Assembly: GCA_965219575.1 (NCBI GenBank)
Contig: OZ244779.1
Span: 172,769-236,768 of the forward strand
Origin: Candidatus Oxydemutatoraceae bacterium
GTDB taxonomy: Bacteria; Pseudomonadota; Gammaproteobacteria; Poriferisulfidales; Oxydemutatoraceae
Direction of reading: 5' to 3'
DNA length: 64,000 bases
Shown: in pieces, positions 51,601 through 57,600 of the stretch
How positions within the stretch are numbered: position 1 is the first letter of the stretch
Layout of the letters: every line of letters begins with the position of its first letter
Program-made: the position numbers

Positions 51601-54600
51601 GGTCTATCGGCGATTGTTCATCACTTGCCATTACGACCTCTCCTAGTTTTTGAATTATTAATCTGTTTCCATCGATTATCGATGAAAAGCATATATTATC
51701 ACTAATTCTAGCATAGACCTCTCTCAGTTTTGAAAATGCCGTATCGAGCAGAATAATATCGTCTTCTCTTAATTCATTAAACTCGTTTAAGCTCAGAGTG
51801 GTAGCGGCGGCTATGACTTCAACTCCAACGGGTAATTTTTCGATATCGCCGGGCGACCCGAGGGTTGCAGTGGCGTGCCATATTTTATCGAGTGTATTAA
51901 TCGTTTGCTCGTCGACATCGGCAAATGCTCGACCGACTACAGCGTCGTTCGCAGACGACAGGTTGAAGAATAAACTCGATTGCAACGGATGGGTAGACCG
52001 ACATTCAATGTCTTCTAAGCTAAAACTGCCGGCGAAATGTCGGGAGAAAAAATCGGTGAGTGGATTTAATGCCGCAATCATGACCGATTTTTTTAAGTCA
52101 TCCGGCAACGCCGCAATATCCTCCAGAGGTAGCCAATCCGATAACAAGAAAGCACATAGACCGGAGTCAAAACCAAACCGCACATTTTGTCCGTTGATAC
52201 TACATTGTAAGGCGGCAGCAAACTCGGAGGGCGGCACTGCGGTATCGGGGCGCAGCATATAAGGCTGTCCGCTCAAGGTGAGTTCTAAATTATTTAGTGC
52301 TTTACAGCTTAGCTTGTTGGCAAACTTTACGGTTTGCGCGGATAACCGTGGATACCGTGAAACCTGCCATTCCATTGGTTTGCTTAAGATTGCCCTAGCT
52401 CCCTCCTTGAGTAGCGAACATAGCTTGACTATGTTGCAGGGTTAAATACTCTATAGCTAGGGCAGTTTTTATATCGGAGATTTAGCCGCCGACGATGTCG
52501 GGCTTCATAGAATACAAAATGCATAGCACTTCGTCTTTCTCTCTCTGTCCGACCTCGTGTTTATCCAAGGCTGCGATGACATCATCGCAGACCTCTACAA
52601 ACTCATCGGCAGCGATATTCATCCCGCGATGTGCAGTCTTCATATCTTCGCCGCTATAGCTTTCGGGTCCGCCGATACCGGAACAGAAAAATTCCCAGAC
52701 TCTTTGGATAACTTCATCACGATTACTATCCACGAAGCGACTCTTAATTCTAGGGTTGCTTGCATGGTTATCGTATATATCCGTACAAATCTCGCGTATT
52801 TTATCCGGTCCGCCTAGGCGTTCGTATAAACTTGCTTCACTCATTATAATATCCTCCTTTACGTTAAATTGTGAAAAAGTATTGATGAATATACCAGTTA
52901 AACGACCACGATTCAATACGAACAGGCAAATTTCTATGTATGGGGGCGTTATGCGAGCACAATCCCGACCGCAAATACGAGAACCGTAAGCATTCTGCAA
53001 ATCAACGATAAACATATTTAGCGAGTTGCAATAAAATTAAACCGCTATGGCTTAAAATATAACAAATGATCCGTTTCGCCGTTCTCATATCCCGCTTGCC
53101 GTTATCGTTTCTTCATACAGTTGCTTGGTTATTAGCTGCTTTTAATTGCTATATCTTGCGTTCTAAACGCGCAGTAATATTGAATAATCTGCACAAAGCG
53201 TTCCCCGAACACAGTAGCGACGAGATTCATGCCCTATGCAAAAAGTATTATTTCGTACAAACGGAATTTTTGGTCGAAACGATGAAGTTGCTATCGTGCG
53301 GTAGACATTGGTTACAAAAGCGCGCTCGGTTGATGAACCCCGATATCTTAGACGATGTCGATACAAATCGGCCGGTGCTTTTGCTGTCCAGCCATCAAAG
53401 CAACTGGGAATGGGCAGCGCAAGTACTATTTCTGCATTGTGGACATCCTTTCTACGGTATCTACAAACCGTTAAGATCGTCTAAATTGGAACGTTTGGTG
53501 TTCACGATAAGAAGTTGCTTCGGTGGCACACCACTACCCCATAAACAATTCGTAAAAACATTAATAAAACATCGCAAACAGCGATGCTTTTTTTATGTGT
53601 TATCCGACCGCGAACCCGATCGCCGTAAAAAATCTATCGAACTAAAATGGTTAGGAGAACAGCCTACCGATTTTTACTCGGGCATCGCACAACTTGCCTG
53701 CGCTGCGCGCTGCGCGGTATTTTTCGTCAAAACCGAAAAAGTTAAAAAGGGACACTATAAGATTTATCTTGAACCTATCGAGAACCGAGGCGAAGGGCAC
53801 GAAAAAGACCTGCTTGCGTCGTATGCGCAAAAGTTGGCACGGGGTTTGAAACAGGCTCCCGCAAACTGGTATTGGGGACAACCTCGGTGGCGATGGAAAA
53901 ACGCAAAAACCGACACACCCCGTTAAAAATAAATAGAATCATATACTTAAGTATGTAAAAATCCTACTAAAAATATTGAAAGGTACTTGACTAGTTTAGG
54001 GACAAAGTCCCACTCAAATATCCCTTACCATCTTCATTAGCATCTCATACTTTTGGGAGGCTGAAAGGTGTCTGTGATTGAATCGCCACTCGCATTCTTT
54101 TAGATGAAGGTGGAAATGTTTTCTCGACACGCCGCAGAACTTTGTTAATCTCCTTTTGGCCCATTCCCAGAAGTTTTCAATGCCATTGATATGTCTAGTA
54201 CCACTGCCCAGTGTCTTTGAATGATTGATGCGGTAGTGTTTGTATCCATTCAACACCAACCCGTCATAAGCTCTCCATTTATCTGTGCATATAGTACTCC
54301 TGTGTCCCACTAAACGCTTGATAATAGGTCGTATCTCGCTCTTTGAAGCATTGCGTATCACCTGCGTATAGACCTTCCCATCTCTTTTTAATATGCCGAA
54401 TACCGGTACTTTGTTCGGTGCACCTCTACCTCTTTTGTCTCCCTTTTTGCGACCACCGAAGTAGGACTCATCGAACTCTACCTCGCCAGAGAATAGGCTC
54501 GTCTGCTCGCAGTGTTGTGCAATTCTTTCTCGGATTATATTGACATATCTATTCGCGGTATTTCTATTGACCCCGGCTGCTTGTGCGATTTGGGTTGCAC

Positions 54601-57600
54601 TCAGATCAAGGGCAAAATACCTCACAATTTGCCTTATTTTCCTGTTTGAAATATGTGCCCTTCTAAAATGTCTGTTAGGTGTTGTCATTACTAGTTATTT
54701 TATCAAATCGTACTCCCTAAACTAGTCAAGTACCTATTGAAAATAAAATTTGTAAGACACTTGACACTATTTCCATTTTTGATATTTTAGTATGCAAAAT
54801 ATGGAGATGAAATTGAAACACACGACTAAAACAATCAGCATAGCTGAATTACTTAAAATATTTTCTACTGAAACAAAAGCAGTTAGGTAGATTGAAGGTG
54901 TGATTTGGGAAGCAAACCTATCTGTCCTAAATGTAAAAAAATGGAGAAGGTTAAAATATACAAACCTAGAAAGTACAATCATTACTGCAATCGTTTTCGC
55001 AGAGCATTTACGATAAAAACCGATAGCGAAATGAACAGATCGCTACTACCTTTGCAATGCTGGGATATAGCGATTTATTTGGTAGTGACCGCGCGAAAGG
55101 GTATATCGTCTTTACAGCTATCAAAGGAACTAGGTATTACTCAGAAGTCGTTTTGGTTTATGCTTCGGCGTGTCCGTGAGGCAAAAGATTAACTTTATAA
55201 AAAACTGATAAAGTAGTCACCATGTTTGCATTAAAGCCGGACACTAGGCAAAGCCTTTTATTAAATAGGCTTAATGGAAAAGGCAAATATAAGTATTCTA
55301 GGTACAATGGGCTACCATTGCGATATGCTGGTGGTAAGACCCTTGCTGTTGGACACATAATAGAACATCTGCCACCTGATATTACTTCATTAGTATCTCC
55401 GTTTTTTGGTGGTGGAAGTGTTGAAATTGCTTGCGCCAAAGAGCTAGGGTTAAAAGTCAAAGGTTATGATGTTTTCAATATATTAACAAATTACTGGCAA
55501 ATACAACTAAAGAAACCATTAGAACTATATAGCCGCTTGTGCAAATGGAAACCAACAAAGAGTAAATATTCACAAGTAAAGAACAGACTTCGTAAGCATT
55601 GGGACAAGTCACAAAAAATAGAGGACAAAGTATCTTTAGCTGCCCATTATTGGTTTAATCATAATCTATCTTACGGACCTGGTTTTTTAGGTTGGATGTC
55701 AAAAATATACGAAAAAGAAAGCAGATATATTAGGTTGCTTGATAAAGTTAGAAACTTCACTTGTCCCAATCTATCGGTATGTTCGGGGAACTTTAGTAGA
55801 ACTATACCTCAACACATAGATTCGTTCATGTATTGTGACCCCCCTTATTATTTGAATGGTAATAGCAAGATGTTTAAGGGAATATATCCACAAAGAAACT
55901 TCCCTGTTCACCATAACCAATTCAATCATGAACTGTTGCGCGATTTATTATATCAGCATGAGGGCGGGTTTATTCTTTCATATAATGATTGTGAGACGAT
56001 AAGAGACTGGTATTCTGATTTTAATATTATAGAAGTAAAGTGGCAATACACCCTAGGGCAAGGTGAAACAAGGATAGGTAAGAATAGAATAGAGAACGGA
56101 ACAAACAATCATATAAAACATTCACATGAACTCTTGGTGTTGGGATGATGCCCAAACGAAGAGCTATGACCAGCGAACACGCAAGCATGGTAAAAAGAGC
56201 TGGGCATGCAAATGAAGAGCATTTTGCTGAACTAATTGGTGGTCATGTACAAAGAGGGCATCATACAGACAAAAAAGATGTTGCGGATGAACAAGACAGG
56301 TATCACTCAGTAAAAGCTGGGGAGCGGTGGCAGATTTTCTTATACAGTAAAAATCGCCTTAAAACTAACACTATCTTTCAAGGATTAGGGAACATTGCAA
56401 ACATAATGATTGATTGTCTTGATGCATACCCAACAACTTATGATGAATATCTTTCTAATAAAACAGCTGCAAAGCTACGACTTCAGCCACACATGAGAAG
56501 ACTCTTAGAAGAGTTAAACAAACCAAAAATGTTAGCATCATTACTTGCTAAGGCATTATTTGATGGTGGGAATGCCGATTATCTTAGTATATATCCTGGT
56601 CTCGCAAAAGACTTGAAAGAGAAAAAACATTTTCATGTATTCCACAAGAATGAAGTAGTTAACACTTTATGCACTAATGTCTCGCTCCGCAATTCTAAAG
56701 CCAGGCACAGTAAACAAATGGATGATCAAAAAGTAGTGTTTTTTTCATTATTGCATAATAAGCAAATAGGGCAGATTGAGGATAGACATGATAGCAAAAG
56801 CCATTATAAACAAATCAAGTTTAGGTTAGATAGCGAACCTGTATTTGAGATACTAAAATCTAATATCCACCCTAAGAAGAATGTTGAGCCTCAAGCTACA
56901 ACTTATGGATTAGCATGTAAGTGGCTTAAAAGGAACTAAAAACAAAGTGGAAATCGGTAAAACATGATTTACATACTTAAAGTATATAATTCTCGGATAA
57001 ATGAGTGGGGAATTATATAGATAACTTGACAAAGAAATGTTAAATTACATTGATGAAAACTCATAGAACAATCAGATATCGCTTGTATCCAGCGACCTAT
57101 GAAAAGCATCGGCAATTACACGGAACTGCCGGAGCGTGTCGTTATGTTTGGAATCACTTTGTAGCCAAGTTAAAGGATGAATACGAGTATTATGGCGAGA
57201 GCCGGTTTAGCTTTTTCACCCTAGGCAAGCAATTTACGACATTGCGAAAGCATTGCGACCAGTGGTTGCAAGGTTATTCCGCTTATATCGTGAAATCATC
57301 ATTACAACCGATAGAGATAGCATACAAAGGATTTTTCAAGGGCAACAACGGATTGCCGAAGTTTCACGGCAAATATACGCATAGCCCGTCATTCCCAATC
57401 AATTATCAATCGGCAAAACTATCGGGTTGTCACTTGTATATACAGAAGGTAGGCTGGATGAAGTTTGCCGGTGGTGATAGGTATAAAGGTGAGAAGTTTG
57501 TATCGGGTCAAGTCAAGTATGAATGTGGTAATTGGTATGCATATATTTGCTATGAAGTGGAGCTAGCGGACAAATCGCAGATGCTAAAGGAAGTGGGTTT

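Follow-up and report, generated by a model that had tools for sequence, protein, structure and literature searches.

Results

Genes and mobile elements between lpxL and ilvA

The DNA analysed here (the window; 64,000 nt, positions 172,769 to 236,768 of contig OZ244779.1, GenBank assembly GCA_965219575.1) comes from the complete genome of a Candidatus Oxydemutatoraceae bacterium (2.37 Mb, one contig, 47% G+C). Between lpxL and ilvA the window contains a cluster of mobile elements, of which the subject of this report is an element of 37% G+C at 53934–56994 (the outer element), enclosed by imperfect inverted repeats and carrying a putative type II restriction-modification (RM) pair. From left to right, it consists of a left terminal inverted repeat (TIR; 53934–53959, + strand), a complete insertion sequence (IS) of the IS1595 family inserted in the opposite orientation (IS-B, the inner IS; 53982–54734, – strand), a pseudogene of an IS1595-type transposase (54801–55192, + strand), the genes for a DNA methyltransferase (55222–56148, + strand) and a 264-aa protein (56145–56939, + strand), and a right end (56928–56994, + strand). 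A TnpB-only element (57000–58274, + strand) adjoins it on the outside.

The two outer repeats, 53935–53959 (AGAATCATATACTTAAGTATGTAAA) and the reverse complement of 56968–56993 (AGAATTATATACTTTAAGTATGTAAA), differ by one mismatch and one indel, and a repeat search returned them as two separate entries, imperfect over 25/26 nt. Both the repeats and what they enclose, namely the broken transposase, the methyltransferase and the following open reading frame (ORF), are readable in the sequence as reported in an initial annotation of this DNA, and its description of nested IS1595 elements, with a 753-bp IS inside the outer repeats, likewise holds. The span given here starts one base earlier than in that annotation (53934 instead of 53935), as it has been set to the register of an intact relative.

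The outer element is collinear with an intact IS

Two intact ISs of the IS1595 family were used for comparison. IS-A (1,348 bp) is present in three copies in this genome, encodes a 320-aa transposase, and has a TIR consisting of A or G followed by GGAATTATATACTTAAATACATAA and perfect AT-rich 8-bp target duplications. IS-C (1,410 bp) is present in two identical copies in G004, a genome of the same genus, with the TIR GGGAACTATATACTTAAGTATGCAA and a perfect 8-bp duplication (GTGATTTT); its 310-aa transposase contains the Zn_ribbon_IS1595 and DDE_Tnp_IS1595 domains and is followed by a 51-aa ORF.

Three blocks of the outer element align to IS-C in the same order: 53941–53981 to IS-C 8–47 (80%), 54736–55182 to IS-C 41–486 (79% nt identity, E-value 4e-108), and 56928–56992 to IS-C 1344–1408 (83%, E-value 4e-13). 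The overlap between the first two blocks corresponds exactly to the target duplication of the inner IS. The IS-C segment 487–1343, comprising the DDE domain, tail, spacer and small ORF, is missing, and 55183–56927 occupies its place. The right end of the outer element begins with the final bases of the IS-C-type small ORF and continues with the right TIR (56968–56994), so that TIRs of the family type, homologous to those of IS-C and IS-A, are found at both ends; both ends are identical in the sister genome G003. The outer repeats are, on these alignments, not a product of chance, since each arm, together with the DNA next to it, is homologous to an end of an intact IS. The two arms also share derived states that are absent from IS-A and IS-C, an AGAAT tip and an internal AAGTATGTAAA, and for this reason belong together. 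As judged by its collinearity with IS-C, the outer element is a derivative of an IS1595-family transporter IS. Transporter ISs of the IS1595 family reportedly fall into the ISPna2+ and ISNwi1+ groups of the ISfinder grouping, attributed to Siguier and colleagues in 2009.

IS-A and IS-C share with the outer element the TIR type (GGGAAYTATATACTTAA...) and a leader with a promoter-like TTGACA box; their own 8-bp duplications are AT-rich. The N-terminal domain of the outer transposase remnant is closer to IS-C (79% aa identity) than to IS-A (50–53%). The two relatives differ from the outer element in being plain ISs, with a whole transposase of 310–320 aa and a 51–52-aa ORF where the outer element has the RM pair. 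This conserved small ORF (MNPK.HKPI... start) lies between the transposase and the right TIR in both IS-A (L076) and IS-C (L018:2712–2867) and gave no family match; only its final bases are retained in the outer element.

The transposase of the outer element is a pseudogene

The transposase remnant (54801–55192) covers the zinc-ribbon and helix-turn-helix (HTH) part only. It contains a TAG at 54888–54890, where relatives have a Trp codon, and a 1-nt frameshift before 54905, it has lost one zinc-ribbon Cys, and it terminates in ...RVREA immediately before the position at which the DDE domain of IS-C starts. No DDE domain was found in the remnant by Pfam search. A 95-aa ORF (54905–55192) has 79% aa identity to residues 37–128 of the IS-C transposase. 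With this N-terminal pseudogene as its only transposase, the outer element is a derivative of the IS1595 family and not a functional member. Since the DDE domain is absent and a stop codon and a frameshift are present, the outer element cannot mobilize itself, in agreement with its initial description as dead.

The remnant is followed by a short segment (55183–55221, + strand) consisting of what appears to be the C-terminal tail of the transposase and the leader of the methyltransferase gene. The tail remnant reads KD*LYKKLIK*, compared to GKRLSYKELTD in IS-A and GKSIKYKELLD in L004, a homologous locus in a Chromatiales metagenome-assembled genome (MAG) described below. Upstream of the remnant, the leader contains a promoter-like site (54761–54788, + strand; TTGACA-16-TATTTT with an upstream TG), the best match to the consensus (10/12). 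The number of promoter-like hits across the region was not above that in shuffled sequences, and the TTGACA box is also conserved in the leader of IS-C. This site could drive transcription of the remnant and the cargo genes.

It might be proposed that the N-terminal part of the transposase was retained for a new function, either to control the RM operon or to bind the TIRs for mobilization in trans. Such a co-option would fit locus L029 of a Gammaproteobacteria MAG, where an intact 161-aa ORF with only a zinc ribbon and HTH (L029:4505–4990) lies upstream of a homologous RM pair, as well as the stronger conservation of the HTH stretch relative to IS-A (84% nt identity, versus 72% for the stretch upstream of it) and the fact that the 95-aa ORF still spans the HTH. 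However, in the copy in the window a stop codon and a frameshift break the reading frame, a zinc-ribbon cysteine is missing and TTG is the only start, L004 lacks the N-terminal part altogether, and the copy in G003 is too similar for a selection test. We therefore regard co-option as very unlikely. The N-terminal-only arrangement in L029 arose independently of that in the window.

The cargo is a predicted type II RM pair

The first cargo gene encodes a 308-aa D12-class N6-adenine DNA methyltransferase, which matches PF02086 (E-value 9e-34; 117.7 bits, cut-off 22) and, over its full length, the PADLOC model MTase_II PDLC03281 (E-value 4e-110), with FGGG and DPPY motifs in its translation. The second gene, whose start overlaps the methyltransferase stop by ATGA, encodes a 264-aa protein that had no match in Pfam, NCBIfam or PADLOC, nor in the Protein Data Bank (PDB) by phmmer or profile search. 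Its 128 homologues (44–89% identity) contain no Pfam domain, and only two of them carry a name, ‘hypothetical protein’. In 43 of the 44 genome loci, a homologue of the 264-aa gene is preceded, in the same orientation, by a methyltransferase of the same family. These loci span many phyla and include Dehalococcoidia, Poribacteria, Acidimicrobiales, Alpha- and Gammaproteobacteria, Campylobacter and Helicobacteraceae, among others; many of them are from sponge-associated MAGs. At three loci (L047, L050 and L002), the endonuclease homologue is followed in tandem by a second, diverged paralogue (34–46% identity to the query).

An AlphaFold2 model of the 264-aa protein was built from 31 sequences (pLDDT 91.8, pTM 0.88), and its only significant fold match in the PDB was R.HinP1I (2fkc_A; E-value 1.6e-5, probability 1.0, 257 aligned columns). 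The active site of HinP1I is made up of a helix-borne Glu plus D...Q-x-K. The residues that are invariant in the 264-aa family, a Glu in the N-terminal helix (E24) and an Asp...Ser-x-Lys (D45/D48, S55, K57), would be compatible with an active site of this MspI/HinP1I-like kind. The 264-aa protein resembles HinP1I, a PD-(D/E)xK enzyme of the MspI/HinP1I type, in its size and in these residues, but the two have only 14% sequence identity and a TM-score of 0.45–0.48, and while HinP1I cuts GCGC and is partnered by a cytosine methylase, the 264-aa protein is partnered by an adenine methylase. The model, the fold match and the pairing make it a probable type II restriction endonuclease.

The cargo is most likely a type II RM system, a prediction that bears out its initial labelling as RM-like: the methyltransferase is assigned by PF02086 and PADLOC, the linked ORF recurs at 43 of 44 loci, and the model of this ORF matches the HinP1I fold. 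Both genes are intact in this genome and translationally coupled, and the pair most likely still works here, the methylase protecting the host DNA and the endonuclease cutting unmethylated DNA. The pair may be expressed from the old transposase promoter.

The cargo lies downstream of the transposase

The initial annotation proposed that the DDE domain had been replaced by the cargo cassette. In L004, a sequence homologous to 55180–56924 of the window is found at 5016–6759, aligned continuously with 83% identity and starting inside the 3' end of the L004 transposase. There, the C-terminal half of the DDE domain and the tail directly precede a methyltransferase (91.6% aa identity) and a 264-aa ORF (75% aa identity), and an IS1595-type right TIR, GGGAATTATATAC... 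(GGGAATTATATACTATTCTGCACA), is located ~135 bp after the endonuclease gene; in L002, too, the endonuclease is followed by an IS1595-type right end. The window and L004 are complementary, the former keeping the left end and the N-terminal part of the transposase and the latter the C-terminal part and the right end, and thus point to an ancestor with the order TIR, whole transposase, methyltransferase, endonuclease, TIR. In three further lineages, L029, L067 and L004, the methyltransferase gene is immediately preceded by a co-oriented IS1595 transposase gene, whole or fragmentary, which in L067 covers residues 36–286. The outer element has the organization of a transporter IS, with the methyltransferase and endonuclease genes placed between the transposase remnant and the right TIR.

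Two routes to this structure can be compared. In the first, a free RM cassette took the place of the DDE domain of a plain IS1595 in one step. In line with this route, the comparison with IS-C reveals one continuous missing segment (IS-C 487–1343) and one continuous substitute (55183–56927), and no intact element with both a transposase and the RM pair was found in the collections searched. However, the substitute segment opens with a remnant of the transposase 3' tail that is homologous to L004, the C-terminal half of the DDE domain is contiguous with the same methyltransferase in L004, and the order transposase, methyltransferase, endonuclease occurs again in L029 and L067. A one-step replacement probably did not take place, and we consider it unlikely. 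The second route, in which a whole transposase first gained the cargo on its downstream side and a separate internal deletion later removed the DDE domain, fits better with the tail remnant before the methyltransferase and with the DDE half preceding the same pair in L004.

Evaluation of the transporter IS interpretation

Taken as a whole, we estimate a probability of roughly 80% that 53934–56994 is the non-autonomous remnant of an IS1595-family transporter IS with a type II RM pair downstream of its transposase. Several observations count against it. The genome, metagenome and protein collections searched yielded no complete copy in which both TIRs flank a whole transposase together with the RM genes, and because of this the ancestor is only reconstructed from two complementary wrecks. 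A metagenome scan with the endonuclease returned relatives of 34–36% identity only, and the nearest relatives found for the methyltransferase (88%, 83% and 80%) occur in different surroundings that include neither the endonuclease nor an IS. At about 38 of the 44 gene-pair loci, no IS1595 gene lies in the neighbourhood. The short tail remnant has a 20-nt match to IS-A that is by itself not significant (E-value 4.7). The fold match to HinP1I has a moderate TM-score (0.45–0.48) and is accompanied by no sequence-level match to solved structures.

The target site also belongs among these observations. ATAAAT is present outside both ends (53929–53934 and 56997–57002), as first noted, one base off the register expected from IS-C. 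It may represent a decayed target duplication, as proposed; as an 8-mer, the match is at most 6/8 and out of register, such a 6/8 match would be expected by chance in about 4% of cases in DNA this AT-rich (a rough estimate, obtained without a tool), and no empty site for the outer element was found in the related genomes G001, G002 and G004.

The last points could also be accommodated by a chance juxtaposition, in which an independent chromosomal RM island came to lie between fragments of two IS copies: most homologous RM pairs have no IS1595 neighbour, the outer target duplication is unconvincing, and the locus is a synteny breakpoint (see below). This explanation is contradicted by the derived states shared by both arms (the AGAAT tip and AAGTATGTAAA), which set them apart from IS-A and IS-C, by the IS1595-type right ends found in the same position after the endonuclease in L004 and L002, and by the collinearity of the left arm, leader, remnant and right end with a single element, IS-C. 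We consider a chance juxtaposition to be extremely improbable, and retain the interpretation of the outer element as a transporter IS remnant.

The inner IS is an active element of another lineage

The 753-bp inner IS (53982–54734, – strand; PF12762, E-value 1.8e-34; NF033547, E-value 4e-52) has perfect 21-nt TIRs (GGTACTTGACTAGTTTAGGGA) and is located 22 bp inside the left outer TIR. It contains a 224-aa transposase ORF with a DDE_Tnp_IS1595 domain (54014–54688, – strand), which scored 119 bits with PF12762 (cut-off 27) and 177 bits with NF033547 (cut-off 75). The insertion is flanked by an 8-bp target duplication, TATTGAAA, at 53974–53981 and 54735–54742, and the ISXO2-like DDE domain, the TIRs and the 8-bp duplication are those of an IS1595 element.

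Eight copies of the inner IS were found in this genome, six with at least 99.7% identity and two with ~96%, all of them with the 224-aa ORF, and most are flanked by perfect 8-bp duplications. In G003, the site is unoccupied and TATTGAAA occurs once; no copy of the inner IS was found anywhere in the G003 genome, and G001 and G004 hold copies at 86–89% identity. These copy numbers, intact ORFs and duplications, together with the empty site in G003, corroborate the initial view that the inner element is alive. Its transposase has 29% aa identity to that of IS-A and, because of this low identity, the inner IS is assigned here to a different lineage of the IS1595 family than IS-A.

The mobile block was recently shared with a sister species

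G003, an uncultured Candidatus Porisulfidus sp. (locus L001), shows the same arrangement as this genome, from lpxL through the outer element (both arms included), the TnpB element and a small ORF to ilvA. Over the block 53861–58303, the two genomes show 22 differences in 3,691 nt (99.4% identity), spread evenly over both elements, compared to a backbone identity of ~82–84%, with crossovers no more than ~75 bp from the foreign DNA on the left and ~30 bp on the right. Because the block is 99.4% identical and the flanks only ~84%, the comparison indicates that the whole block was recently transferred between species; the simplest route would be homologous recombination in the DNA immediately flanking it. 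In G003, the endonuclease gene is broken by a 1-nt deletion at the position corresponding to 56349 of the window, and the methyltransferase gene is intact.

Inspection of the lpxL–ilvA interval in relatives for an empty site, as had been suggested, yielded no collinear interval in G001, G002 or G004. In the same-genus genomes G001 and G004, dsr genes follow lpxL, with ilvA at a distance of at least 45 kb; in G002, lpxL has a different neighbour on a contig that ends ~1 kb downstream, and ilvA is on another contig. Homology to G001 and G004 ends at 53901 and restarts at 58289 (L017, L018, L022 and L023), and lpxL adjoins ilvA in this genome and in G003 only. From this mapping, the mobile-element block sits at a synteny breakpoint. 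G003 is the only relative with the RM pair at this locus, and there the pair is accompanied by both repeats.

A TnpB element and other nuclease cargos with related ends

The TnpB-only element outside the outer element (57000–58274) has perfect 24-nt TIRs at 57008–57031 and 58243–58266 and an 8-bp target duplication, AATGAGTG. This duplication begins at 57000, 6 bp past the right outer end at 56993 and at the distance first reported. The terminal GGGAATTATATA is common to the TnpB element and IS-A, both of which make 8-bp duplications. The element is present in this genome in five full copies (the others at G000:C1 267404–268669, 331967–333223, 871715–872971 and 1865962–1867218) and several miniature derivatives. 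Neither a Y1 TnpA nor a serine recombinase was found in the genome. An NTA|A motif is present at the outer edge of the TnpB duplication at 11 of 12 left ends and 1 of 10 right ends. A review lists prokaryotic TnpB associated with DDE transposases for ISL2, IS630 and IS1031, and IS1595 is not included (PMC13565253).

Miniature derivatives of IS-A and the TnpB element (~140–250 bp; G000:C1 520824–521071, 1859842–1860089, 421897–422034, 1149331–1149526 and 2197523–2197746) have matching TIRs and near-perfect 8-bp duplications, which indicate mobilization in trans in this genome.

The expectation that TIRs of this family would be found with other nuclease cargos was supported by the GGGAATTATATA that the TnpB element shares with IS-A and by a Flavobacteriaceae MAG. 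In the latter, an IS1595 element (L070:2486–5995) with the TIR GGGAATTATGTATTTAG, of the same TIR type, has a frameshifted transposase, carries fragments of HNH and, below threshold, GmrSD_N domains, and is inserted in a homologue of the 264-aa gene.

Elsewhere in this genome, outside the window, a second RM-like pair is situated just after cox3 (L077, G000:C1:325500–328300; ~1108–2540 of that locus). It comprises a 277-aa N6_N4 methyltransferase and a 152-aa PDDEXK_5 protein and is followed by another N6_N4 methyltransferase ORF. Two IS1595-type ends abut the pair, and one of them is similar to the right TIR of L004. In G001 (L073), a D12 methyltransferase (83% identity to that of the window) and an N6_N4 methyltransferase are inserted at the same cox3/SURF1 position.

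The cluster of insertions had initially been attributed to a repeated landing site in an AT-rich stretch for one transposon family. A special insertion hotspot was rejected: a preference for AT-rich 8-mers as targets, together with dispensable DNA, suffices to explain the cluster, and the inner IS is of a different lineage.

Discussion

The following history is proposed for the locus. The ancestor would have comprised a TIR, a leader, a full transposase (zinc ribbon, HTH and DDE domain), the methyltransferase, the restriction endonuclease and a second TIR, the RM pair occupying the place of the spacer and 51-aa ORF of the plain relatives IS-A and IS-C. An internal deletion of ~170 codons would then have removed the DDE domain, fusing the N-terminal DNA-binding part to the last dozen or so codons, after which the transposase remnant would have acquired a nonsense mutation and a frameshift. 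Subsequently, a TnpB-only element with related IS1595-type ends would have inserted 6 bp to the right, and the block 53861–58303 would have been exchanged between two Ca. Porisulfidus species, presumably by homologous recombination in the flanks. Finally, in this genome, the active 753-bp IS1595 of the other lineage would have entered 22 bp inside the left TIR; the frameshift in the endonuclease gene of G003 would also postdate the exchange.

Passenger genes in IS1595 elements are known from MTnSag1 of Streptococcus agalactiae and tISCpe8 of Clostridium perfringens (PMC5704250). These elements resemble the outer element in their IS1595-type transposase, ~25-bp TIRs and the location of the passengers between the transposase and the right TIR, and they have an 8-bp duplication, of which the outer element may retain a decayed form. 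They differ in the passengers themselves, which serve lincosamide resistance and mobilization, whereas the outer element carries a type II RM pair and has a dead transposase.

Transposon-like RM units were described in Neisseria gonorrhoeae and Xanthomonas oryzae by Furuta, Abe and Kobayashi in 2010, with mobilization in trans proposed for them; in the unit of N. gonorrhoeae NCCP11945, the inverted repeats are 26 bp long, the duplication is 8 bp and the transposase (COG3677) survives as an inactivated fragment (PMC2853133). Like the outer element, these units contain RM genes within imperfect inverted repeats, in their case with an 8-bp duplication, and the Neisseria unit also has a dead transposase fragment. 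Their enzymes are either type IIG, accompanied by an S subunit, or belong to another type II pair, and no named IS family was linked to the repeats; in contrast, the outer element is explicitly linked to intact IS1595 relatives (IS-A and IS-C) and is nested with another IS. The locus is thus a well-documented example of an already known kind of mobile RM unit. Some novelty may be seen in the unnamed family of the 264-aa protein, with its modelled HinP1I fold and its spread among sponge symbionts, and also in the way the element can be tied explicitly to intact IS relatives and in the recent passage from one species to another.

The type II RM pair, the cox3-adjacent RM-like pair, the GmrSD/HNH-like gene of L070 and TnpB are all found with IS1595-type ends. 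It is tentatively hypothesized that such TIR shells act as a shared chassis for DNA-cutting cargo in the sponge-symbiont community, that the nuclease cargo retains the shell and spreads it from species to species after the death of the transposase, through post-segregational killing or RNA-guided homing, and that the 264-aa protein founds a HinP1I-fold family paired with adenine methylases; we regard this broader proposal as possible but rather doubtful.

The locus leaves the current understanding of IS1595 elements and of RM mobility unchanged. It offers a well-resolved example of RM genes travelling as passengers of IS1595-type transposons, and its value as an example lies in the intact relatives of the vehicle in sister genomes, the complementary decayed copies elsewhere and the recent transfer between species. 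It also draws attention to an unnamed and fairly widespread family of probable endonucleases (about 128 clusters), most of whose members are from sponge symbionts and others from Campylobacter and Helicobacteraceae; the family, with its D12 methylase partner, is amenable to characterization.

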